Shown one piece after another: positions 10 to 59,473 of a stretch of 64,000 nucleotides of DNA. Every line of letters starts with the position of its first letter. Within the stretch, counting starts at the first letter, position 1. A model generated the notes under the pieces. It saw only the letters and a list, made by a program, of their open reading frames with translations. It was not told where the DNA came from and searched no databases. Made by a program: the position numbers and the translations under genes. Source of the DNA: an uncultured Fibrobacterota bacterium (lineage in GTDB: Bacteria > Fibrobacterota > Chitinivibrionia > Chitinivibrionales > FEN-1185); contig CAVWBU010000047.1 of assembly GCA_963753345.1 (NCBI GenBank), forward strand, positions 1 through 64,000. The letters run 5' to 3'.

Positions 10-612
10 TTGTGTTTTGCCGCCGCGAACCCGGACAGCGCGAACATTGTCCTTCCGAGGCCCCAAATGGACAAGGGCAAACCGCTGATGCAGGCGCTTA
101 AGGCGCGCAAATCAACGCGGGACTTTGGCCCCCAGAAAATTTCCGATCAAGCCCTGTCTGATATGCTCTGGGCCGGCTTCGGCATCAACCGGCCGGAAAC
201 CAATGGAAGGACCGCTCCTTCGGCGATAAACATGCAGGAAATCGACGTGTATGTGATCCTGGAACGGGGGCTGTACCGGTACGACGCCAAGGCCAACATC
301 CTTGTGTGGGTCGTTGGCGGGGACATCCGCGCGCTTGCCGGCAAGCAAGCTTTTGTAAAGGACGCGCCCGTTAACATCATGTTGGTTGCCGATTATTCGC
401 GGATCAAAAAAAGCGGGCAGAACGACGCAAAAAATTACGCGGTTGCCGACGCCTCCTTTATCAGTGAAAACATCTACCTGTACTGCGCCTCGGAGGACCT
501 GGCCACCGTCGTGCGGGCGTCGGTTGATAAACTGGCACTTGCCAAGGCCATGCAGCTACGGCAGGACCAGGAGATAATTTTCGGCCAGACCGTTGGTTAC
601 CCCAAAAAGTAA
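10..612 (+). CDS. Nitroreductase (SagB/ThcOx-like) family protein; may start upstream of the window
   Basis: Motifs LMQALKARKSTRDF, LSDMLWAGFGINR, RTAPSA, ENIYLYCASEDL and QTVGYP are typical of this FMN-dependent family. Confidence 0.85.
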   Translation: MCFAAANPDSANIVLPRPQMDKGKPLMQALKARKSTRDFGPQKISDQALSDMLWAGFGINRPETNGRTAPSAINMQEIDVYVILERGLYRYDAKANILVWVVGGDIRALAGKQAFVKDAPVNIMLVADYSRIKKSGQNDAKNYAVADASFISENIYLYCASEDLATVVRASVDKLALAKAMQLRQDQEIIFGQTVGYPKK

Positions 613-752
613 ATCACAGCCGCACGCTTAGGTTCGCGCCGGCCGTCCGAACCGTCAACGGAGCATATTTTGTCAAGACGGCGCTGCGGGATGGACCATG
701 CGCGGTCATCCCCTATGCGCTGGTCTGCTGAGCGCCGTGCTGGCTGGCGATA

Positions 753-1824: not shown

Positions 1825-3750
1825 TCATCGCAGAAAAGAAACCTTTTGACTGAAAATCTGCCCTGCCGCCGTAACCTGCAGAACATAATTGCCCTGCGCA
1901 AGGTGCGCCTCGTTGAAATCGAAGTACGCGCCGCCGTTGCGGCAGTGCATCGCGACACTGCAGCACAGCCGTCCCTGCAGATTGAACATTGACAAACGCG
2001 GCGGCTCGCCCTTTGGGCCGGCCGCATACAAGACCGTTACGATGCCCCGGCTGAAGCGCAGAGAAGGGGCGGCGGCAAGTGCGGCACGGGGGTTGCCGCG
2101 AACCCCTGTAAAAAGCGTGACGACGGTGTCGAATCTCGCTTCGACATCCGTGTTGCAGGCAAACATGGCGAATCTAACCTTGTCGCGGCCGAAACTCGCC
2201 GGTATTTGCATGGATACAGGGCCGGACAGAAGGCCTTCTTTTGCTGCGAGCAAAGAGTCCGACAGGTACTGTGGCAGCGGGTATCCCGCCACCGTATCGA
2301 TGCAGGTGGTGGTTTCCGGATAGGAAATCTCGCATCGGTACTGCAACTGCCCGTTACCTGATGAAGCTTGATTGGGGGACAGGGTGAGCAGGCCGTTCGC
2401 ATCCATTGCAACGGTCGGGGAAAGCGCGGCTTTCTTTTTGAGAAAGGTGAGGGCAGGATCACCAATAATCTGGTACCACGTCATATTATCATCCCTTGAA
2501 AGAGCAAAAGCAGCGGAAACAGCCTGGCCGAGCGAAAGGCGCTCCGTACTTGACGTCTGGGAAAAGAGATCGGCTGCCAGTTTTTCATTGTCGGTGGCAT
2601 ATGTTTCCTGGGTCGCTGCGAAATAGGAAATGCAGCCTCCCGTTGGCTTGAACAGATAGGCCTGGGACATTTGCTGGACCGGTTTGCGGAGGAAATCACC
2701 ATTACTGCAGGAAAAGGAGAAAAACATCGTAGGCGCGGTATCGTTGGTGAACCGCGGGGCATCACTGTTCCTTAAAAAACCTTCGTCGGACAGGGAATCG
2801 GGATGTCCGTGGCCGAAATAGATGCACCACCGGGCCCCGGCATTGACATCCGCGAAATAGGTGTTGCGGGCGTTGTCATGTGAACCGACCGTCGACACCA
2901 CGAATGAAGAGAGGTAGACTTTTCTCTGAAAAAACCCCATCAGGGTCTTGTCCGAAATCGTTTCAGATGCTTCAAGATGCTCTGAGCCGAGGGGATCGAG
3001 ATATGTTCCCTGCATCCTGTCGTCCGCGCAGAGGATTGCATTGTTGCACCAGAGGCTTGCGCTGTTCCTGTTTTCAAAGGAAATCACCTTGTCAACATAC
3101 ACGCTGCATTCCGCTGCGGAGCGGGCCGGGATCCGACCTGCAGAAACCTGGGTCAAATTCGTATTGTAAATCGGGACAAATCGATAGCTGCCTCTAACTT
3201 TCTGGAGAACGCTTGAGTCGTAGGCGGTGCAATAAAGGAAATCCCCGTAATCGACAGATGTGTCGAGCTTGGGACTATTATTATTAACATTAGTAGAAGT
3301 ATCCGCAGACAGGTAACAGGTCGGCATGAGGCCCGCACTCTTGGGAAACGATAGCGAATCGAACCCTGTAATCGACACCGAATCGTCACCCATCAGAACA
3401 AGGTACTTCGGCTTGACGGTCCACTGCTCCAGGGCATAATTCACCGCATACCATATTTCGCCGCACCGGGGAATGGTGTCGCCGGTCGGAAATTCGGCGT
3501 CGAGGGTGGCAAGGTCAACCACCTTGGCATAGGCGACATCGTCGCCGGTGTAGATGTTGCGGAACGCGGCGAGCCGCTCGGCGCTCGCAAGAAACTGGTG
3601 GGGACACACAATCAGGTAGTCGCACGACACCGAAGGGGATTTGAAAACGGAAATGAGCGTGCTTTGCGCGCCAGCGGAGAGTGCGCATACGACAATCAAA
3701 ATTAACGCAGGGGACCATGGGCGCCGGCTGAAGCGCAACAGTTTTGTCAT
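1825..3750 (-). CDS. C25 family (gingipain/PorU-like) cysteine peptidase with T9SS-like C-terminal domain
   Basis: DYLIV, YLVLMGD, GRIPA, YFGHG (His) and FSCSNGDF (Cys) motifs; signal peptide from ATG 3750 after GGAGG; tail MFNLQGR...GNYVLQV...KVSFLR. Confidence 0.85.
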   Translation of the reverse strand: MTKLLRFSRRPWSPALILIVVCALSAGAQSTLISVFKSPSVSCDYLIVCPHQFLASAERLAAFRNIYTGDDVAYAKVVDLATLDAEFPTGDTIPRCGEIWYAVNYALEQWTVKPKYLVLMGDDSVSITGFDSLSFPKSAGLMPTCYLSADTSTNVNNNSPKLDTSVDYGDFLYCTAYDSSVLQKVRGSYRFVPIYNTNLTQVSAGRIPARSAAECSVYVDKVISFENRNSASLWCNNAILCADDRMQGTYLDPLGSEHLEASETISDKTLMGFFQRKVYLSSFVVSTVGSHDNARNTYFADVNAGARWCIYFGHGHPDSLSDEGFLRNSDAPRFTNDTAPTMFFSFSCSNGDFLRKPVQQMSQAYLFKPTGGCISYFAATQETYATDNEKLAADLFSQTSSTERLSLGQAVSAAFALSRDDNMTWYQIIGDPALTFLKKKAALSPTVAMDANGLLTLSPNQASSGNGQLQYRCEISYPETTTCIDTVAGYPLPQYLSDSLLAAKEGLLSGPVSMQIPASFGRDKVRFAMFACNTDVEARFDTVVTLFTGVRGNPRAALAAAPSLRFSRGIVTVLYAAGPKGEPPRLSMFNLQGRLCCSVAMHCRNGGAYFDFNEAHLAQGNYVLQVTAAGQIFSQKVSFLR

Positions 3751-3966: not shown

Positions 3967-6816
3967 CTACCGCACCAGAAGAACCTGCCTGACAAAGTGT
4001 CCGCCATCCACGTCGAGGCGGACGAACCAAATTCCTGCGCTCGTGGATTTGCCGTTGCCGAGCGTTCCGTTCATCGCGATCGGATGCCAACCGGCCTCGA
4101 CCCTCGCATTGGCCGTCCGTTCGAGGATTCTTCCTCGTGCGTCAAGAATCTCCATCGAAACCAGTGAGGGTCTGCTTATGTAATACCGTACCACGCCGTT
4201 GATGGTCCGGATGTCGAGCGCCGGCATGGTGGAAGCCGCAGGAGCACGCAATGCCGGTCGCACCATGTCAACTATGCCGTTGTTCGGTACCGGAACAACG
4301 GTGAACGATGCGGTGCCGGTGCCGAGGCCGGACGAGGTTGCCGTCACGGTCACCACGCCGGGCGTAAACATCGAGCGTACCGCCACCTTGCACATGCCGC
4401 CTTCGGCCGAAAGGTTGGGGTCGAGCGGCGCATGGTAGCCGAGCGGCTGGCCCGCGGTGACCATCTGATCGCTTCCGCCTCGATAATTGCCGGGCCCGGA
4501 AACGGCAAACGTGACGATGTTGCTTGCCGTGGGGCAGATGATGCCGTTTGCGTCAACCACTTTTGCCAGGATAAGAGCGGCATCGGTGCCGTTGGCCGTG
4601 ATCTGGAAGGTGTCTCCGTTTGCCTGCACCACGGGCGTGTCCACGACCAGAACGATGTGGTCGGGATTGCCCGCGGTCTGTTTCTGATCGGAGCACACAA
4701 TGGTTCCGTTGGCGTCAAGGCCATTCGCAAGAAGCGTTCCGGCTACCCAGGTCACGTTGTCCCAGTAGCATTGGAAGGGCAGTTCGGTGTTGGTATTGTT
4801 GGCGAAAGTATAGTCATCGCCCGTGCCATTCCAGGGATTCGGCGTCTTTTTGCCCAGGCTCGTTCCGTTGAGCAGGAGGTCGACGGTCGCGCAGTTGCTG
4901 AACGCGTTGACCCGGACCGCGCCGCTGCGGTTCCAGTGATGGGCAAGATACACCACGGGTTTAATGGAGTATGGAATCCAGCACGCGGCATACATCTTGT
5001 AAAGCATTTTGGGTATGCGGCTGAAATCCATCATGGAACAGCCGAACGATCTCACCGAATTGCCCGGAGTTCCGTCGGCATATTGCTGGTCCTCGCCCGG
5101 CGTTTCGGCCATGTACCATTGACACATGCCAAAACAATTATCCCCCTTGGCATCCTTCCAGTGCATCAGGTATGCCTGGGCCATCTCGATCTCGTAATCG
5201 TACGCGGCTCTTTGCGAAGCATACATGTTCATGCCGCCCCACGCTTCCGCGCCCCAGGCGGGATTACCCGGGTTGCCGCCCTTGACGCCGATCTCGCATC
5301 CGGTAACTGTGCAGGAGAGAATGTCTTTGGGCCCGTTGCCGTTTCCGCGGACCGATATCACGCGCGGGGACAGCGAGTCCCACGTAGTGCAGATGGTCCT
5401 CAGCGCGTTGCAGGTGTTGGGATCGATATTCCCGTTGCTTACCTCCCATGCGAGAATGGACGGATCATTTCTATCACGTATGACGCCGTCGCGCTGCATT
5501 TCCTCTTTGAGCGTGATTTGGTCCGCGGTCGCGGACCCGGTGGAGAACTGACCCTCGCCTTCGCCGCTCGGCTGCATGAGCATCACCCCCGTGTTGTCGC
5601 ACGCGTAAACGAATCCGGGGCTGCACGCGGAATGGCCCGGCCGCCACAGGTTGCCGCCGCACTTCGTGAGCAGCAGCGCGTCACGATATTCGACTTCCGG
5701 GGGCAGGGCGGTTCCGAGCGCAGGGTAGTCGTAGCGGGCCGACGCGCCGTACAGCAGATGCTTATGCCCATTGATATAAGGGAAGTTGGCGTCCCACGTG
5801 ATCGTGCGTATTCCAAGGGGACTTTTGCATACGTCAACCGTGGTCCCGCCGACCTGCACGATGTGGTACACCGTGTACATGTACGGGCCGCCGAACGTGC
5901 TGTTGTTGGGATACCACAGGTGCGGATTCGTCACCGTGCCGCTCTGATCGAACACCGTGCTCTGCCCCGCGTTGACGGCGCCGCTGCTCGTCTGGGTGAG
6001 CACAACCGTGTTGGTCGCATCCACCACCTTGGTGGTGACCGTAACGTTCTGGGCGGCGGCATTGTCGTTCCTCACGTTTGTCAACATGCGCACCGTTGCC
6101 TGCGAACCGTCGGCCGCGACGCTCGTCGCGGCGACATAGGTGCCCCACTGACTGAGGGTCGAATACGAATTCATCGGAACATGGACCTTGTCGGTGATGT
6201 ACATGAAAACCGGCCGGAATATTCCGCCGTCTTCCGACCCGAACCGGAATACCGTCGAAAAACCGGGATTTTCGAAGAAGCCGCCGTTCTTGCCGACCCG
6301 AACGGCCAGCACATTGTCGCCGCCTCCGAAATTGAGATCGGGAGTAACATCCACAACGAATCCCTGGAAGCCGATGACGTGGGTCGCGGTCGCATCCGCG
6401 GTTACCGCGCTGTTGCCGGGCAGAAACGTACCGTTGATGTACACCTGACAGCCTATGTGCACCCCCTGGAATTCAACGAAAACCTTTCTTCCGGCATAGG
6501 AATTGTCGATGGTAAAATGCTTCCTGTACCATACATTGCTGCCGAACATCGACCCGTCGCCGCCGCCGCTGGCCTGGTTGATAAAAGTATCGGTGTCATT
6601 ATAGGTGTGCGGAATTCCAACATCCTTCCACGCCGCGTCGCTGTACGCAGTGGCCTGTGCGCCGCCGGCCGGATCCGTTTTGGTGAACTTCCAGGGTGAT
6701 GCACCCAGGTTGATGGTCACCCTGTTGCTCGCTTCTCCTGTATACGTTTGCGCGAAACCGGACACGGCGGCCAGCATCGCGACCACCATTGCCCATGCAA
6801 GAATTTTCCCTTTCAT
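3967..6816 (-). CDS. Secreted glycoside hydrolase family 2 (beta-galactosidase-like, DUF4982 domain) with T9SS-like tail
   Basis: WYRKHF, VFVEFQGV, GGIFRPV, HLWYP, GIRTITWD, RDRNDPSILAWEVSN motifs; signal peptide MKGKILAW after GGGAGG. Confidence 0.85.
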   Translation of the reverse strand: MKGKILAWAMVVAMLAAVSGFAQTYTGEASNRVTINLGASPWKFTKTDPAGGAQATAYSDAAWKDVGIPHTYNDTDTFINQASGGGDGSMFGSNVWYRKHFTIDNSYAGRKVFVEFQGVHIGCQVYINGTFLPGNSAVTADATATHVIGFQGFVVDVTPDLNFGGGDNVLAVRVGKNGGFFENPGFSTVFRFGSEDGGIFRPVFMYITDKVHVPMNSYSTLSQWGTYVAATSVAADGSQATVRMLTNVRNDNAAAQNVTVTTKVVDATNTVVLTQTSSGAVNAGQSTVFDQSGTVTNPHLWYPNNSTFGGPYMYTVYHIVQVGGTTVDVCKSPLGIRTITWDANFPYINGHKHLLYGASARYDYPALGTALPPEVEYRDALLLTKCGGNLWRPGHSACSPGFVYACDNTGVMLMQPSGEGEGQFSTGSATADQITLKEEMQRDGVIRDRNDPSILAWEVSNGNIDPNTCNALRTICTTWDSLSPRVISVRGNGNGPKDILSCTVTGCEIGVKGGNPGNPAWGAEAWGGMNMYASQRAAYDYEIEMAQAYLMHWKDAKGDNCFGMCQWYMAETPGEDQQYADGTPGNSVRSFGCSMMDFSRIPKMLYKMYAACWIPYSIKPVVYLAHHWNRSGAVRVNAFSNCATVDLLLNGTSLGKKTPNPWNGTGDDYTFANNTNTELPFQCYWDNVTWVAGTLLANGLDANGTIVCSDQKQTAGNPDHIVLVVDTPVVQANGDTFQITANGTDAALILAKVVDANGIICPTASNIVTFAVSGPGNYRGGSDQMVTAGQPLGYHAPLDPNLSAEGGMCKVAVRSMFTPGVVTVTATSSGLGTGTASFTVVPVPNNGIVDMVRPALRAPAASTMPALDIRTINGVVRYYISRPSLVSMEILDARGRILERTANARVEAGWHPIAMNGTLGNGKSTSAGIWFVRLDVDGGHFVRQVLLVR

Positions 6817-26756: not shown

Positions 26757-27641
26757 ATGGCAGAAAACGACACGGCAAACAACGACTCCGGCAATCAACC
26801 GAACCAGCCCGCAGGCGACGAAGCTTTGCAAGCCGCCCCGGAAACCGTGGCCCTCGAAATCACCGACGAGCAGGCGGCCGACAATGCCGCGGCCATGGAG
26901 GAAGAAAGCAGGGCCGAGGTTGCCGTTCCGGAAAACAATTCGCCCGACAATCCCCTTCGCGTGCTCGAGGCGCTGCTCTTCGCCTCCGACGAAATCCTCA
27001 CCACCGACAGGATAAAGGCCATTGTGCCCGGCATTCCGGACGGCCGCAAGATCCGGCAGATGGTTGACAAAATAAACGAGCATCTCGCCAAAGAGCGCCA
27101 CCCGTTCGAGGTCGTGGAGATCGGCGGCGGGTACCAGTTCCGCACGGTTTCGTACTATTATCCCTGGGTGGTGCAGCTCTTCAAGGAGAAGGCCGCGCGC
27201 AAGCTTTCCATCCAGTCGCTCGAATGCCTCGCGATCATCTCGTACAAGCAGCCCATCACCAAGGCCGAAATCGAATCCATACGCGGCGTGATGTCCGACG
27301 GCGCCATGAAGACGCTGCTCGAGAAACGGCTCGTGACCATTTCGGGCCGCAGCGACAAGGCCGGGCGTCCGTTGCTCTATGCGACCACCAAGGAATTTCT
27401 CGCCTACTTCGGCATCAACAAGATCGCCGACCTGCCGAGGATCGAGGAATTCGAGGCCATGGCAAAGGAGAAACTCGGCGACCTTACCGAAACGGAACTC
27501 ACGTTCATGGAGGCGGAAAAGACCGCGGCCGCGGATGTGCCACAGGCGCCCGCCGCGCCCGAAGAAACGGTGGCGCTTGACCAAAGCGAATTGCCGCAGG
27601 ACGCGCCGCAGGACGCGCCTCAGCCGCCCCAACCGTCATGA
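26757..27641 (+). CDS. scpB: SMC-Scp complex subunit ScpB
   Basis: LEALLFAS, GGGYQFRT, LECLAIISYKQPITKAEIESIRGV and GRPLLYATTKEFL; acidic N- and C-terminal extensions. Confidence 0.92.
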   Translation: MAENDTANNDSGNQPNQPAGDEALQAAPETVALEITDEQAADNAAAMEEESRAEVAVPENNSPDNPLRVLEALLFASDEILTTDRIKAIVPGIPDGRKIRQMVDKINEHLAKERHPFEVVEIGGGYQFRTVSYYYPWVVQLFKEKAARKLSIQSLECLAIISYKQPITKAEIESIRGVMSDGAMKTLLEKRLVTISGRSDKAGRPLLYATTKEFLAYFGINKIADLPRIEEFEAMAKEKLGDLTETELTFMEAEKTAAADVPQAPAAPEETVALDQSELPQDAPQDAPQPPQPS

Positions 27642-30316
27642 CGTCCCTCGAATTCCAGTCCCCTTCCGATTCGCTCACCCCGCTCATGCGCCAGTACAAC
27701 GCCATCAAGGCACAGAACCCGGACACCGTGCTGCTGTACCGGATGGGCGATTTCTACGAGATGTTCAACGAGGATGCGAAGATCGCGTCAAAGGTGCTCG
27801 GGCTCACCCTCACCGCGCGCAACCACGGCGGCGCCGAGGACGTGCCGCTGGCCGGATTTCCGCATCACGCCATCGACCGGTACGCAAACCGGCTGGTCAA
27901 GGCCGGATACAAGATCGCCATCTGCGAGCAGACCGAAGACCCCAAGAACGCCAAGGGCGTGGTGAAGCGCGACATCGTGGAGATCATCACGGCCGGTACG
28001 GCGACCGAAGACAACTTTATCGAAGAAAAGAGCAACAACTTTATCGTGGCCGTGGTCGCCGCGGCCGACGCCCTGGGGATCGCCATTTGCGATCTGTCAA
28101 CAGGGCTCTTTGAGGCCGAGGAAATTCCGAAGGACATGCTCGGCGAAGAGCTTGTCCGCATCGATCCCGCCGAGGTCCTGCTCGCCGGCGAGGAGGACAA
28201 CCCGCTTTGCGCGGATGTAAAGAATGCGCTGCCGCAGGCGCTCGTGTCGCGCTACGATGCCTGGAAATTCGAGCATGACATAGCCGACAAGTATCTGTGC
28301 GGCCATTTCGGGGTCGCCACGCTGTCGGGCTTCGGGTTTTGCAACCTTGGATGCGGCAGCGTGCGCGGCCGGGGGACTGCTTTCCTATCTTAAAGACCAG
28401 AAAAAGAACGATCTGCGCCACATCGTGGCGCTTTCTCCGCGCGCGCTGTCGTCGTTTGCCGACCTCGACCCGTCAACGATACGCAACCTCGAGCTGCTCC
28501 GCCCCATGCACGCCGACGACGAGGACGGCACGCTCCTGTGGGTGCTCGACAAGACGAGCACCGCCATGGGCGCGCGGCTGTTGCGCACATGGATCACCCA
28601 CCCGCTGCGGGACATCGGGGCGATTGCCGAGCGGCTCGACAGCGTGGCCTGGTTCAAGGCCGACGTGTTTGTCAAGGGCGAGGCGGAACTGTTCCTCAGG
28701 CAGATCGCCGACATCGAGCGCCTGATCGGCAGGGTCGCGTACGAGCGCGCCAATGCCCGCGACGTTTCCGCGCTCGCAAAGTCGCTGGCGGTGTTTCCCC
28801 GGATAGTCAAGCTCCTTTCCGCCGCGCCGAGCACATCGCTGGCCGAAGCGCGAATGTCTCTCGAAGGGTTCGAACCGCTCGTGGAATCGGTGCTTAAGAC
28901 CATCGTGGAGAGCCCGCCGCTGTCGATAAGGGAGGGCGGAATCATCAAGACCGGCGTGTCGGCCGAACTTGACGAAGTGAGAAGCGCAACCGTAAACGGC
29001 AAGAAGTGGATCGCCTCGCTCCAGGAATCCGAGAGCAGCCCGCACCGGCATTTCGTCGCTGCGCGTGGGATACAACCGCGTGTTCGGCTATTACATCGAG
29101 GTGTCGAAGGCGAACCTCGGCTCGGTGCCGGAGAATTACATCCGCAAGCAGACGCTTGTCAACGGGGAACGGTTCATCACGCCCGAGCTCAAGGACATGG
29201 AGGCCAAGATCCTGGGCGCCGACGAAAAATGCGCGGCGCTGGAATACGATCTGTTCGTGGCGCTGCGCTCCCGCATCGCAGGCGCAGTGCGCCGCGATCC
29301 AGAAGGCGGCGCGCTCAATCGCCCTGCTCGACGTGTACCTGTCGCTTGCAAAGGCCGCAACGGAATACGGCTACTGCCGGCCCGTGCTCGCGGAATCGGC
29401 CGATCTTGCGATACGAGAGGGCCGGCACCCGGTGGTGGAGCGCATGCTTTCGGCCGGCGACCAGTTCGTTCCGAACGACACCGACTGCCGCGCGGCCGAC
29501 TCGCAGATATTGCTCATCACCGGCCCCAACATGGCGGGAAAATCAACCTATTTGCGGCAGAACGCGCTTATCGCGCTCATGGCGCAGATGGGTTCGTTCG
29601 TGCCCGCTTCCTCGGCGCAGATCGGCGTTGTTGACAGATTCTACACGCGCGTGGGCGCGTCCGACCGGCTCGCGCGGGGACAAAGCACCTTCCTGGTGGA
29701 AATGATCGAGGTGGCCAACATCCTCAACAACGCCACCGACAAAAGCCTCGTGCTGCTCGACGAGGTGGGCCGCGGAACCTCCACGTTCGACGGCATCTCA
29801 ATCGCCTGGGCGGTCGCCGAGTACCTGCACGAGGCGCAGGGCAGAAGGCCGCGCACGTTTTTTGCCACGCATTACCACGAGCTCACCGAGCTGGCCCTTC
29901 TGTTCCCGCGAATCAAGAACCTGCACATCAAGGTGAAGGAATGGAACGACAAGATAATCTTTCTGCGCAAGATCGACCTTGGAAGCTGCGACCATTCCTA
30001 CGGCATCCAGGTCGCGCGGCTCGCCGGCGTGCCCAAGGCGGTGATCATCCGCGCAAAGGAGATTCTGGCGAACCTTGAGAACATGGAGTTCTCGCCCGAC
30101 CACAAGCCCATTCTCGCCCGACACCGGGAGGCCAAGAAAAGCGCGCAGCAGGAAGCAGAACGTTTCGATGTCGGCGTGCAGCTTAATATGATCGACGCAA
30201 TGAAGGGGGAAATCATACAGCAGCTTTTAGACTTGGATTTGAATCAGCTGACGCCGCTTGATGCGTTGAACTTGATAGCAGAATTGAAAAAGAGGGCGGG
30301 GGAAATACCGGAGTAG
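27638..30316 (+). CDS. mutS: DNA mismatch repair protein MutS; split by about three frameshifts
   Basis: [50 protein letters not shown] and ATHYHEL spread over ORFs 27638, 28347, 29065 and 29006. Confidence 0.93.
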
Positions 30317-37799: not shown

Positions 37800-37993
37800 C
37801 GGGCTTCCGCCGGGGTTGCGATGCACTGCAAAATTTTTGGCGAACAGGCTGGTTTTGGCGAAACCATCCAGGGCCAAGGTCTACCATTATACATAATAGC
37901 ACAATAAGGGAAATATTTCCATTGATTTTCGCACTATTTGCGCAATGGAATGCAAACCGAGTTTGGAGAAATCGCGCGGAAGTGAGATCAGGG

Positions 37994-39145
37994 CTAAGAA
38001 CGGTTCGCCCCGGAGCGGGGGCTGTGATCCTCAACCGGCATGAACCATTTCTGGGCGACAAAAGTCGGAATGACCGCGCTTGCCACAACGACACCAACTA
38101 AAATAGAATATTGAGATTGGTTGATAATTCCCGATTGTAAGCCGAAAAGGCTTGAAATAGTTCCAAAGGTCAAGCCGGTGCTCATGAGCAGCGTCGTATA
38201 CATACTACCCTGAGGAATGTATTTCTTTGCAAGAAAATAGACCCCGGCAAATTTGGCGATTATTTTGAGGAAGAAAAACAATAAAAACAGGCCAAGGCTT
38301 GCGACAATCAAAGGGTAAGAAATCCTAAGGCCGCCAACGATGAAGAAAACCGGGGTTATAATGGCATAGGCCACTGTGCGGAGACGTTGTATAACCAAAT
38401 GGTGTTCCGATTCCTTTCCGAAATACTTGGACATGAATAGGCCAAGCACAAAAGCGGGAAGCACTGCATGTCCTTCACCGAGGTTGGCGAAATAAATAAG
38501 GGTCAATAAAAGCACGAAAATGTACTTGATCTCGGATTCAACCACCTTATTCTTGAATACCGAATGGCTAAAAAGGTAATGAGAAAACAGGGACGCAACG
38601 ATTATCACTGCAATAGAAACGACATAAAATAGAAGCGTGAACCATGTCGGCTTTACAAAAATAACACTTAGCGTCAAAGCCGTACCCATGTCCGTGATGA
38701 ACGTTGACGACATTAGAAGCTTACCTATGCGAGTATCCGACAGACCGCTTTCCACAAGGACGGAATAAATGACAGCTAGGGACGTCGTTGATAAGGCTAT
38801 TCCCGCAACAAGTGCAGCTTGAATACCCCAGTGCAGCGCAAACAACGCAACGACTGCCACTACAATAAACGGTAGCAAAAATGAAAAACCGCCGATCAGC
38901 AGACTGCTTTTCAGGTTCTCCTTCATCATTTTCGTGTCGATTTCGGTTCCGGCAAGAAACGTGAGAATAATACCGCCGAATCCTGCCAGGTACTGCATCC
39001 ATTCTGCCGTATGCAGGCCGAAATTACCGGCAATAGAACCAAGAAGAATTTCGACAATCGCTACTGAAATACCGAGACGCAATGAGATTATGCTTGCGAC
39101 AAAGATAATCAGACCTGTGAATAAAGGATTTAAATCCGCGTGCAT
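37994..39145 (-). CDS. Cation:proton antiporter (CPA2 family)
   Basis: About 12 hydrophobic segments; LTFLAGTEID, ALSTTSLAV, ITDMGT and PVFFIVGG. Confidence 0.88.
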   Translation of the reverse strand: MHADLNPLFTGLIIFVASIISLRLGISVAIVEILLGSIAGNFGLHTAEWMQYLAGFGGIILTFLAGTEIDTKMMKENLKSSLLIGGFSFLLPFIVVAVVALFALHWGIQAALVAGIALSTTSLAVIYSVLVESGLSDTRIGKLLMSSTFITDMGTALTLSVIFVKPTWFTLLFYVVSIAVIIVASLFSHYLFSHSVFKNKVVESEIKYIFVLLLTLIYFANLGEGHAVLPAFVLGLFMSKYFGKESEHHLVIQRLRTVAYAIITPVFFIVGGLRISYPLIVASLGLFLLFFFLKIIAKFAGVYFLAKKYIPQGSMYTTLLMSTGLTFGTISSLFGLQSGIINQSQYSILVGVVVASAVIPTFVAQKWFMPVEDHSPRSGANRS

Positions 39146-39150
39146 GACAG

Positions 39151-39241
39151 CCTCCTATGAGAAAATGAAGCAAACCATAGGAGTCATCAGCCACATCTTG
39201 AGAGAAGAAGAATAGCGGTTTAAGGTGGAACTCCATCACCT
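39151..39241 (-). ncRNA. Fluoride riboswitch (crcB motif) with RBS-sequestering expression platform
   Basis: AGGTGATGGAGTTCCACCT-TAAACCGC...GCTGATGACTCCTATG; CTCCTATG pairs with CATAGGAG, which covers the AGGAGG RBS of the antiporter. Confidence 0.9.
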
Positions 39242-39266
39242 ACGAACAATTAATATTCTTAAAACG

Positions 39267-39703
39267 TTATTTCCGGTCAGGCCTCCTCACAATTAATACA
39301 TCGCAGTGGGCCGTTTCACTGATTCGGTCCGCCGTTGGTCCAAGAACCCTGCCGATAAAGCCGGAGTGGCCGACTTGACCAATTACAATTAGATCAAAGC
39401 CGTTTTTTTCGGCATACTGTACTATCTCGCGAGAAGCGTTTCCCCGCAGATTTACCGATTGCACGTTCATATTATGATCAACTGCGCCTTTTTCGGCATA
39501 GCTCTTAAGATTATTGAAATATTCCTCCACCGCTTCGATTTCACCCTCAATTCGTCCTTTCTCACAGCTTGACGAGGTAGGTCATCACGAACCCATCCTA
39601 TGGTGATTGAGGCATTGTGTTCCTGAGCAACAGTAAATGCACGGGCAAGCGCGGCCTTCGACCCGTCCGATCCGTCAAAGGCAGCAAGGATTTTTTTATA
39701 CAT
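39267..39703 (-). CDS. Universal stress protein (UspA family); frameshift near 39540
   Basis: [19 protein letters not shown] in one frame; [12 protein letters not shown]...[20 protein letters not shown] in another. Confidence 0.85.
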
Positions 39704-39704
39704 A

Positions 39705-40986
39705 TCACCTCGCATTCTTGAATGATTTCTTTCCGGCAAAAACAGCCTGTTTCCCAAGGAATTCTTCGATTCGAATCAATTGATTGAACTTGGCGGTGCG
39801 CTCGCTCCGGCAGCCTGAGCCGGTTTAGGGGTGCTGCACAAGTTACGACTGTCAAGTCCGCTATCGTCGTGTCTTCGGTTTCGCCGGAACGGTGCGAAAC
39901 GAAACAGTTGTAATTATTCTTCACCGCCAATGCAATTGTATCGAACGTCTCGGTAAGCGTACCGATCTGGTTCAGCTTTATGAGAATGGAATTTGCAATG
40001 CCCTTTGCAATGCCCTGCGCCAGAATGGCCGGGTTTGTGCAGAAAATATCATCACCCACAATTTCGATTTTGCCGCCGAGTTCATCGGTCAACAATTTCC
40101 AGCCATCCCAGTCATTTTCCGCCATGCCGTCTTCGAGGAGAACAATCGGATATTTGTCTGCCCAACTTGCCCAATGCTTGACCATCTGTTCGGAGGTCTT
40201 TGACGATTTGTCAGACTTGAAAAACACATATTTGCCGCTATCCCACATTTCACTTGCAGCCGGGTCAAGGCAGATTGAAATATCTTTGCCCGGCTGATAT
40301 CCTGCTTTAGTGATGGCATCGAGGATAACTTCTACAGCCTCTTCATTGGATTTAAGATTCGGGGCAAAACCTCCTTCGTCGCCGACCGCCGTGCTATAGC
40401 CCTTTTTCGAAAGAACAGATTTCAGCGTATGAAACGTCTCGATTCCCATTCGTATCGAAGTGCGAAAATCGGGGGCATTGTGCGGAGCGATCATGAATTC
40501 CTGAAAGTCAACGTTGTTATCGGCATGCTTTCCACCGTTAATGATGTTCATGCAGGGAACCGGAAGGAGGCTGGCGTTCACGCCGCCCAAGTACCTGAAC
40601 AAGGGTACATTAAGATTGTTGCATGCCGCCCGAGCCACCGCAAGAGACACGGCGAGGATCGCATTTGCACCCAATACTGATTTATTAGGAGTGCCGTCGA
40701 GTGAAAGCATGACAGCGTCAATTTCTCTCTGATTCAGGGCGGACATTCCTTTGACGGCCGGTGCGATTTTCGTATTTGCGTTTTCGACTGCTTTAAGAGT
40801 GCCTTTGCCGAGATAGCGTTTTTTGTCCCCGTCTCTTAGCTCAACCGCTTCCTTTTCGCCGGTCGATGCACCGGACGGGACAATTGCACTGCCCTTTATG
40901 CCATTTTCAAGGGTTACCTCAGCTTCAACAGTGGGATTTCCCCTTGAATCCAATACTTCTCTTGCATGGACATTTGTGATTTTCAT
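39705..40986 (-). CDS. eno: Enolase; frameshift near 39825
   Basis: [39 protein letters not shown] and SHRSGETED; the alternate frame gives [21 protein letters not shown]...NAR* ending at 39705. Confidence 0.95.
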
Positions 40987-41027
40987 AAGGATTCCTTTCT
41001 TGGTGGCTGTTTTATCGCCATTGGGAC

Positions 41028-41065
41028 AAAAAAAACTCCTACTGATACTTTTTACCAGTAGGAGT
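41028..41065 (-). terminator. Riboswitch-controlled intrinsic terminator
   Basis: ACTCCTACTG-N11-CAGTAGGAGT stem followed by a T run; its 5' arm is the aptamer's pseudoknot strand. Confidence 0.9.
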
Positions 41066-41107
41066 CATCAGCCGAAATTCAGGCGTTTATAGGCGAACTC
41101 CATCGCC
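41058..41107 (-). ncRNA. Fluoride riboswitch (crcB motif) aptamer upstream of eno
   Basis: GGCGATGGAGTTCGCC-TATAAACGCC...GGCTGATGACTCCTAC matches the crcB-motif consensus, including the GGAG/CTCC pseudoknot. Confidence 0.93.
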
Positions 41108-41114
41108 AGAAATC

Positions 41115-41143
41115 AAAATACATCAAAAAGAAATATAATCCAA
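41115..41143 (-). promoter_or_regulatory. Putative sigma70 promoter of the fluoride operon
   Basis: TTGGAT-N17-TATTTT, ending 7 nt before the first G of the aptamer. Confidence 0.55.
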
Positions 41144-41228
41144 GATGCCTGTTTTCCACTTTAACGCCGCACCTTTGTATTTCTGCGCGGCGTTCTTTGG
41201 GTGCGCATTGCACACAACGAGGCCCAAT

Positions 41229-59083: not shown

Positions 59084-59473
59084 TTAGCCTCCGATGCCGG
59101 CGGCAGCGATGATCCCTCCCGCGATGTAGGCGACCACCCACCAGCCGTAGGCGATCCGCGTATACCAATGGATGCCGCGCGGCACCAGTCTCCCGCCGCG
59201 GTTTCTTCGCCAGTGTCCCCAGATCAGCATGGTGTCGACCAGCATCGCAAGAAGCGCGGAATAGCCGATAACGCCGTGCACCGTGATGGGGATGTTGCGC
59301 GACCCGACAATCATGTACAGCGTGGCGGTGAGGTCGCACGCGAGGCCGGCGGTGAGGAACACCAGCACCATGCTTGATACAATAGACTTTCGCTGTTCGG
59401 CGATCACCGCGACTGAATAGAACAGCAGGGCGAACGTGACGATCACCACGCCGGTTGCAAGGGTCGGATTCAA
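59084..59473 (-). CDS. Small four-TM membrane protein (HsmA-like)
   Basis: ALLFYSVAV..EQ, GLACDLTAT..M and HGVIG..ALLAML motifs. Confidence 0.65.
   Translation of the reverse strand: MNPTLATGVVIVTFALLFYSVAVIAEQRKSIVSSMVLVFLTAGLACDLTATLYMIVGSRNIPITVHGVIGYSALLAMLVDTMLIWGHWRRNRGGRLVPRGIHWYTRIAYGWWVVAYIAGGIIAAAGIGG

Follow-up and report, generated by a model that had tools for sequence, protein, structure and literature searches.

The window analysed here, 64,000 nucleotides from an uncultured Fibrobacterota bacterium (contig CAVWBU010000047.1, positions 1 to 64,000), carries on its minus strand an enolase gene, a universal stress protein (USP) gene and a gene for a putative cation/proton antiporter (CPA), arranged behind two fluoride riboswitches (Table 1). 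We focus on the antiporter and on its likely role in fluoride tolerance. Its open reading frame (ORF) starts with ATG and is intact, and Pfam assigns the 383-aa product to PF00999 (Na_H_Exchanger; E 2e-39, 136 bits against a gathering cut-off of 26.2, residues 12-362). No second Pfam domain was found in it, thus no KTN, TrkA or RCK domain, and about 20 residues remain after the membrane domain. Since enolase, USP and antiporter are all the genes behind the two switches, the antiporter is the sole transporter among them. Neither CrcB (PF02537) nor CLC (PF00654) was matched by Pfam in the 70 ORFs of the 64 kb, three extra hydrophobic small ORFs included, and the antiporter itself has neither domain. 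These observations bear out an earlier reading of the window made from the sequence alone (hereafter, the sequence-only reading), according to which the only transporter under the fluoride switches is a 383-aa antiporter without KTN domain, has a riboswitch of its own, and has no crcB/fluc or eriC-F gene near it in the window. The end coordinate given in that reading, 39241, omits the first 8 nt of the riboswitch aptamer. An ORF with four transmembrane helices at 59084-59473 encodes an HsmA-family protein and not CrcB.

The two riboswitches appear to act in different ways. The aptamer in front of the enolase gene (aptamer 1) overlaps an intrinsic terminator with a fold energy of -21.8 kcal/mol (z -5.0; 0 of 200 shuffles fold equally well), and judged by sequence the two together are a classic transcriptional ON-switch platform. 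The aptamer in the same-strand 5' leader of the antiporter gene (aptamer 2) ends 25 nt ahead of the ATG (39145), and the Shine-Dalgarno region stands 6-8 nt before that start codon. The hairpin that joins the 3' strand of aptamer 2 with the Shine-Dalgarno region has no U-run and so resembles a translational ON-switch platform. Because its fold z-score is only -1.35, we infer this platform from the pairing logic, by which aptamer 2 would be a translational ON-switch for the antiporter. We found nothing promoter-like on the minus strand from the USP gene to aptamer 2, so that the antiporter may need both switches in series.

Table 1. Features of the fluoride-responsive island in the window
Feature	Position	Strand	Basis
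Low-GC island holding aptamers, enolase, USP and antiporter genes	37950..41150	.	Composition profile
Antiporter gene, 383 aa, KTN-less, CPA2-like	37994..39145	-	Pfam PF00999, NapA/KefC alignments, family alignment, AF2 model, Foldseek
Hairpin of aptamer 2 3' strand (CUCCUAUGG) with Shine-Dalgarno region (CAUAGGAGG)	39152..39183	-	Minimum-free-energy and centroid folds
Fluoride riboswitch aptamer 2, directly upstream of antiporter	39171..39249	-	Rfam RF01734, 50.5 bits, E 4.7e-11
USP gene in two frames (change near 39548-39557)	39267..39703	-	Pfam Usp profile positions 1-55 and 73-141 in separate ORFs
Enolase gene in two frames (change near 39826-39833)	39714..40986	-	Pfam Enolase_N and Enolase_C, match ends at residue 384
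Intrinsic terminator overlapping aptamer 1 3' end	41034..41066	-	14-bp stem followed by U8 run
Fluoride riboswitch aptamer 1, upstream of enolase	41052..41116	-	Rfam RF01734, 59.4 bits, E 6.2e-14, full model 1-64

Relatives of the antiporter number in the thousands. The best 120 of them are 65-92% identical to it, about 380 aa long and have PF00999 only, and automatic annotation names homologs KefB. By scanning one genome per species we obtained 63 homolog loci (numbered with L below) from both bacteria and archaea, in a tight clade of 57-92% identity. The bacterial hosts are Fibrobacterota (79-89% identity), Planctomycetota, Spirochaetota, Ignavibacteriota, Omnitrophota, Nitrospinota, Thermodesulfobacteriota, Chloroflexota and Bacteroidota; the archaeal ones include Methanoperedens, Methanobacteriaceae, Micrarchaeota and Woesearchaeota. 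In 55 of the 63 loci (18/18, 15/18, 16/20 and 6/7), one of which (L062) holds a truncated gene copy, a fluoride aptamer reaching the Rfam gathering score of RF01734 lies directly upstream on the same strand. The sequence-only reading had named consistent association of close homologs with the riboswitch as a check on its proposal, and the association is there: in these 55 loci and in all six of the plasmid loci of a sister clade that are described below. For the known fluoride exporters, riboswitch control is put in a 2024 review at only about 15% of Flucs and about 30% of CLC-Fs (PMC11139923). Genomic context thus supports the view that the antiporter is a dedicated fluoride-response transporter. 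Tandem fluoride aptamers precede the antiporter gene in L001 (3654-3963) and L048 (1511-1805); in L001, the terminator of the first aptamer is still there, and the two aptamers are separated by what is left of the USP 3' end.

What kind of transporter it might be can be judged from its fold and from its ion site. The closest solved structures are NapA (E 3e-7 with a single sequence, 9.5e-23 with a profile) and KefC (profile E 6e-9). In the AF2 model (predicted local distance difference test score, pLDDT, 83.8; predicted template modelling score 0.82) the helices are broken at residues 118-122 and 322-324. These breaks correspond to the two unwound crossing helices, transmembrane helices (TM) 4 and 11, and place the protein in the NhaA-type core fold. 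Foldseek returned NapA (TM-score 0.66-0.72), KefC (0.70) and PaNhaP (0.72) and, over the range of 0.63-0.74 that includes these three, also MjNhaP1, NHA2, SLC9C1 and SOS1. Every PDB match listed by Foldseek is a cation/proton exchanger, and the ESM Atlas gave KefB/CPA2 clusters only.

To read the ion site, we used profile alignments with NapA and KefC and the CPA motif of eight positions given by Masrati 2018 (PMC6181914). Positions 1-4 are T120-T121-S122-L123, where NapA has A-T-S-V and KefC has L-S-S-T. An alternative mapping through a 'Kef-like LSST' at L118-S119-T120-T121, with a K+-type site as its consequence, was dropped, the profile alignments giving T120-T121-S122-L123 instead. Position 5 is S147 (S or A across the family); it is not Glu, and the antiporter is therefore not a CPA1 protein. 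Position 6 is T151 (D156 in NapA, Q155 in KefC), position 7 is D152 (D157 in NapA, D156 in KefC), and position 8 is K298 on TM10 (K305 in NapA). The protein thus has the Asp at position 7 and the Lys at position 8 of the CPA superfamily; Asp is found at position 7 in 94% of CPAs according to the same study (PMC6181914). On TM11, 'MSTGLTFG' stands where NapA has 'MAPRGEVG' and KefC has 'LGQGSEFA'.

Among 57 full-length members of the family, the residues T151, K298, K294, S119, T121, S122, S322-T323-G324-L325, F327-G328, E32, E68 and D70 are invariant. At position 152, 49 members have D and 8 have N; at position 120, 44 have T and 13 have E. As seven of the eight N152 members carry E120, a carboxylate is kept at the helix crossover in 56 of the 57. 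In the tree, two distinct clades show the state E120/Q295/L329 (instead of T/I/T), with members in Methanoperedens (L035-L038, L040, L044) and in L030, L042, L045, L047, L055, L056 and L058; the second E120 clade also has D152N, as if the carboxylate had shifted from TM5 to the unwound TM4. Asp is absent from position 6 in all of the 64 full-length representatives, which reach down to 28% identity, and 'STGLTFG' is kept among them down to about 33% identity. According to Masrati 2018 (PMC6181914), electrogenic transport is tied to D or E at position 6 together with K at position 8. By this rule, T151 predicts electroneutral transport. Taken together, the antiporter is predicted to be a CPA2-like exchanger with a one-carboxylate, electroneutral site.

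The label 'CPA2-type' used in the sequence-only reading holds loosely, in that the best solved relatives, NapA and KefC, are CPA2 proteins and position 5 is not Glu. It does not hold for canonical CPA2, since the score with TIGR00932 is 97.7 bits against a cut-off of 238.3, and the Asp or Glu expected at position 6 is replaced by T151 in 57 of 57 members. The protein is not a KefB either (29 bits with the equivalog NF002973, cut-off 804): in place of the Kef motifs L-S-S-T and Q-D it has T-T-S-L and T-D, and the Kef-type C-terminal KTN/RCK domain is absent.

The surroundings of the gene in other genomes bear on whether it works together with a fluoride exporter. In the close family, clustering of the 394 neighbour ORFs within 3 kb gave 318 clusters, which indicates that there is no conserved partner. 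Pfam found CrcB or CLC in 0 of 383 neighbour ORFs of the 63 loci (295 within 2 kb and 88 further hydrophobic ones), so that a fixed exporter partner is ruled out for the close family. A search of plasmids with tblastn added a sister clade of 38 records, 39-45% identical, from Klebsiella (18), Enterobacter (5), Citrobacter (5), Methylocystis (4), Salmonella (2) and one each from Rubrobacter, Rhizobium, Escherichia and Caulobacter. Six of the 38 were examined in detail. A fluoride aptamer lies directly upstream in all six, and all six retain the family signature. In five, a USP gene follows the antiporter immediately, and the sixth (Rhizobium) has an 85-aa remnant. The Methylocystis operon reads riboswitch-antiporter-USP-crcB-DUF190, while the Klebsiella, Salmonella and E. 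coli plasmids have riboswitch-antiporter-USP-MutS-MutS, the Klebsiella plasmid continuing to crcB (6.3 kb downstream of the antiporter) and gpmA. By these gene orders, a fluoride island circulates on Enterobacteriaceae plasmids. The three enterobacterial plasmids with this order (L064 from Klebsiella, L068 from Salmonella and L069 from E. coli) are large and conjugative or mobilizable, and in them a P-type ATPase follows MutS-MutS.

The sequence-only reading had offered two functions for the antiporter, the first of them fluoride export in place of Fluc or CLC-F. It would then be a third kind of fluoride exporter, an H+-coupled transporter of F- or of a metal-fluoride cation on the NhaA fold, with the single carboxylate for H+, a pocket of lysine, hydroxyls and aromatics for F- or the cationic metal-fluoride, and a role as the sole defence in many uncultured anaerobes and archaea. 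A riboswitch linkage of about 90%, far from the values for Flucs and CLC-Fs quoted above from PMC11139923, would suit such a role, as would a cassette that stands alone, with no CrcB or CLC among the neighbours. The site, too, is shifted to hydroxyls and aromatics (invariant T151, S119, T121, S122, S322, T323, F149, F327 and Y316), the R/E pair of NapA on TM11 is lost, and there is a precedent in riboswitch-linked EriC variants, which proved to be F-/H+ antiporters (PMC7266159). On the other hand, the buried carboxylate in 56 of 57 members is accompanied by the canonical lysine, all fold neighbours are cation exchangers, and we know of no anion transporter in PF00999. Moreover, sister genes with the same signature lie in a crcB operon (Methylocystis), in a crcB island (Klebsiella) and on an E. 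coli plasmid. E. coli itself possesses Fluc (PMC4144673), and bacteria typically encode only one exporter type, as the 2024 review puts it (PMC11139923). Retention of a cation/proton site and a co-operonic crcB in the sister clade thus lead us not to favour direct fluoride export: we regard it as improbable, and the proposed replacement of Fluc/CLC-F is not supported, given the presence of carboxylate and lysine and of crcB in the Methylocystis operon and on the Klebsiella plasmid.

Instead, we consider it probable that the antiporter is a fluoride-induced monovalent cation/proton exchanger of the NhaA/NapA fold, which is an accessory to fluoride tolerance through pH and not an exporter of fluoride. 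Much more tentatively, and short of even odds, we suggest that it works in the H+-inward direction, lowering the pH gradient. Aptamer 1 would gate transcription of the enolase and USP genes, probably of the whole unit, and aptamer 2 would gate translation of the antiporter; because both switches are fluoride-gated, we propose that the antiporter appears only at high fluoride. Through D152 and K298, one K+ or Na+ would leave per H+ that enters, electroneutrally, much as with a built-in nigericin. According to measurements by Ji, Stockbridge and Miller on E. coli without an exit pathway, the ratio [F-]in/[F-]out is the same as [H+]out/[H+]in (PMC4144673). Entry of H+ would shrink the transmembrane pH gradient that traps F- and so would lower F- trapping in any host, and the proton-motive force would shift to membrane potential, which would drive Fluc channels where these are present. 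In the absence of fluoride such an exchanger would be harmful, which would explain both the near-universal riboswitch control and the USP gating in some lineages. A cassette that stands alone and crosses domains must also work in any host. The K+ gradient is universal, whereas an inward Na+ gradient is not. Direction, stoichiometry and ion are all things that we infer.

The second function offered earlier, counteracting the cytoplasmic acidification driven by hydrogen fluoride (HF), would have a similar exchanger run the other way, taking Na+ or K+ in and extruding H+ to clear the HF-borne acid load. Riboswitch-linked Na+/H+ antiporters are explained in this way in the 2024 review (PMC11139923). 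Entry of HF and exit of F- through Fluc make a continuous proton leak that needs removal, and sister-clade genes do share an operon or island with crcB. An electroneutral one-carboxylate site can run either way, and many of the hosts are anaerobes and relatives of methanogens. Such organisms can hold cytoplasmic Na+ low with primary Na+ pumps. Extrusion of H+, however, requires an inward cation gradient that exceeds the pH gradient; in all cells K+ gradients are outward, and many of the hosts are bins from fen, bog, peat or groundwater, settings that are usually poor in Na+. In addition, by the rule from PMC4144673, a higher internal pH without F- exit would raise F- trapping, and control by fluoride only in about 90% of loci would be unexpected for a general acid-relief exchanger. 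The acid-relief function is therefore possible, but it depends on an inward cation gradient and the opposite direction fits at least as well; we consider proton extrusion somewhat unlikely, a little behind the H+-inward direction.

Several observations weigh against the pH-lowering exchanger that we prefer. Where Fluc is present, HF/F- cycling already imposes an acid load, and H+ influx would increase it, which favours the opposite direction. The site differs from that of every characterised exchanger (no Asp at position 6, and STGLTFG in place of PRGE or GQGSEF), and with a site so remodelled the substrate could be something else. Position 1 is polar (T, K+-like) but position 4 is non-polar (L, Na+-like in CPA2); the two conflict, so that the motif does not tell Na+ from K+. 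In one member, L043, a carboxylate is missing from both position 120 and position 152. Eight of the 63 loci lack a riboswitch at the gathering level. Among these, L032 has a sub-threshold aptamer (31.2 bits, E 7e-5) and two are not assessable (L057 starts at a contig end, and L063 is a 29-aa fragment), while L020, L030, L042, L045 and L047 have no fluoride aptamer upstream; four of these five clear misses fall in the E120/N152 subgroup. Furthermore, our literature searches found no published test of a riboswitch-linked CPA antiporter, and the enolase and USP genes of the window are frame-broken, so that its island may be decaying. As an argument against dedication to fluoride, the five riboswitch-less loci were considered and rejected, since four of them form one derived subgroup.

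The sequence-only reading had also suggested that the adjacent USP could be the regulatory partner of the antiporter. In a search of representatives we found a natural fusion, P0153 (533 aa, 39% identical), with Na_H_Exchanger at 16-371 and Usp at 405-533, whose fused USP resembles the operon-encoded ones. A search for longer fused forms among proteins of 672-2000 aa gave three matches, none with a USP or KTN domain. For the antiporter of L003 with its own USP, complex prediction scored 0.39 (runs of 0.39, 0.49 and 0.36) against 0.00 for the best control, a mark that 116 of 157 solved complexes and 2 of 215 mismatched pairs attained. At 0.60 or under, though, only 18 of the 157 attained it, together with both passing mismatches. 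Agreement between the runs is at least 87% of contacts, the pLDDT of the partner is at least 78, and the prediction weakly backs the pairing. In the close family, a USP gene lies within 4 kb in only one of the 63 loci (L003), besides the window; USPs were counted with a local USP hidden Markov model over all stop-to-stop ORFs, and Pfam scans were not used for this count. A partnership is thus suggested by the fusion, by adjacency in five of six plasmid loci and, weakly, by complex prediction, and it does not extend to the close family as a whole.

The history of the island can be followed to some extent. At 45-50% GC against 58-69% in the flanks, it lies about 15 GC points lower, whereas the same gene in 59 homolog loci has a median difference from its flanks of only -3.2 points. 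A gap so far above this median marks the island as compositionally foreign in the window genome and suggests that it was acquired recently by horizontal transfer; we found no convincing flanking repeats that would mark an insertion. In a maximum-likelihood tree of the 57 full-length members (leaving out the split ORFs L039 and L060, the partial L048, L050, L057 and L062, and the fragment L063), the window protein and L001-L003 form a Fibrobacterota clade with support of 100/100, and outside it archaea and bacteria are intermixed. By this tree the clade is horizontally mobile and the cassette crosses domains. In the three Fibrobacterota relatives (L001-L003), the cassette is found at differing chromosomal positions. 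L003 has a riboswitch, an intact 145-aa USP gene, a second riboswitch and the antiporter gene. Of the island, the antiporter is what stays constant, and enolase and USP are present in some cases and absent in others. Directly downstream of the cassette in L003 there is a fragment of a DDE transposase (5373-5849, minus strand).

The state of the enolase and USP genes raises the possibility that the island of the window is a recently acquired, decaying remnant, in which the antiporter is out of use. Both genes are read in two frames: by tblastn, the enolase of L054 (78% identity) continues in the other frame from 39833 to 39717, and the intact 145-aa USP ortholog of L003 aligns with both USP halves. 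In the relatives, L001 has lost enolase and keeps only the 3' end of USP, and enolase is gone from L003 as well; the GC deficit of the island of about 15 points fits a recent arrival. The antiporter ORF, however, is intact, with all family-invariant residues, a Shine-Dalgarno sequence and an intact aptamer. Moreover, MutS at 27638-29705 of the window is likewise split between two frames, so that the frame breaks may be assembly errors rather than real mutations. The breaks in enolase, USP and MutS could come from either assembly indel errors or real decay of the island and mutS, but that the antiporter is a disused remnant seems to us highly improbable.

Beyond the core cassette, a few neighbours in the homolog loci deserve mention. 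Enolase genes lie near the antiporter in L010, L026, L046 and L054. A gene of the dihydroxy-acid/6-phosphogluconate dehydratase family stands upstream of the antiporter in L052 (1992-3862), with a fluoride riboswitch just upstream of it, and in L053 (82-1827); in L054 an ORF at 55-1903, assigned to the dehydratase cluster by clustering and not by Pfam, is located just downstream of a further riboswitch. To our knowledge, this dehydratase family is not a listed member of the fluoride regulon. DUF6062 proteins are encoded beside the antiporter in L012 (140-712 and 3597-4274) and L059 (5181-6494), and one of the two genes in L012 has its own fluoride riboswitch (140-209), which places a member of this DUF family under the control of fluoride. 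L046 has extra riboswitches at 600-670 (minus strand) before glutamine synthetase and at 3122-3201 (plus strand) before a pair of NUDIX hydrolase and prenyltransferase genes. In L027 (1723-3971) a c-di-AMP riboswitch and a Kup transporter gene are directly upstream of the cassette on the same strand, and in L018 (1413-3592) TrkH and TrkA are upstream on the opposite strand. These K+ transport genes adjoining the cassette might be taken as a weak hint that the ion is K+.

Should the antiporter protect by collapsing the pH gradient, cells would have a defence against fluoride that needs no fluoride transporter; should it move fluoride, it would represent a third class of exporter. Either answer would be relevant to the engineering of fluoride-tolerant strains for organofluorine work. 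As members occur on plasmids of E. coli, Klebsiella, Salmonella, Citrobacter and Enterobacter, the question is directly testable in laboratory E. coli.

Association of fluoride riboswitches with such antiporters is already in print. The 2024 review, citing Baker 2012, names Na+/H+ antiporters as the next-most common riboswitch-associated genes after the exporters (PMC11139923). With a PF00999 gene directly behind RF01734, in a regulon with enolase, USP, MutS and crcB, the window gene probably belongs to the antiporter class noted by Baker 2012 and would add a member to it. What is new here is the signature of the clade (T-D on TM5, the invariant K298 and STGLTFG on the second unwound helix), the linkage to the riboswitch at about 90% over two domains of life, the USP fusion, the members on Enterobacteriaceae plasmids and the argument on transport direction.

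Of the characterised exchangers, the electrogenic CPA2 Na+/H+ antiporter NapA of Thermus thermophilus (4bwz, 5bz2, 5bz3) is the best match in both sequence and fold. The two proteins have in common their length, the absence of KTN, the unwinding of TM4 and TM11, and the Asp and Lys of positions 7 and 8. They differ, at about 20% identity, in T151 for D156, TTSL for ATSV and MSTGLTFG for MAPRGEVG, and the window protein, unlike NapA, is predicted to be electroneutral. Another relative is KefC of E. coli (8bxg, 8by2, 9emb), whose K+/H+ exchange is gated and whose protective effect comes from acidification of the cytoplasm. It shares the fold (TM-score 0.70) and the single site carboxylate, its Q155-D156 corresponding to T151-D152, and both proteins may follow the principle of an exchanger that is normally closed or absent and is opened under chemical stress. 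In contrast to KefC, the window protein has no KTN/RCK domain or glutathione gate, has TTSL and not LSST, and is under riboswitch control, with USP in some lineages.

Fluc (CrcB) and CLC-F, the two bacterial fluoride exporters that have been characterised, share a regulon and a riboswitch class with the antiporter, but are related to it in neither sequence nor fold, and the antiporter keeps a cation/proton site. EriC-F nevertheless shows that a fluoride transporter can go unnoticed within a riboswitch-linked subclade whose site residues are altered (PMC7266159). A USP module attached to a cation transport system, or encoded beside it, recalls KdpD of S. aureus, whose USP domain binds c-di-AMP (PMC4686210), although KdpD is a sensor kinase and not a CPA exchanger. 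There is also a likeness in gene content with the FRM operon of Enterobacter cloacae, ppaC-uspA-eno-gpmA-crcB-orf5249, in which fluoride was reported to induce enolase 176-fold and USP 120-fold (PMC5533749). FRM and the window share an adjoining eno-USP module behind a fluoride riboswitch on a horizontally acquired island; the operon as given in that report has crcB and no CPA antiporter, whereas the window has the antiporter and no crcB, and the Klebsiella plasmid stretch with crcB and gpmA in turn recalls the FRM island (PMC5533749).

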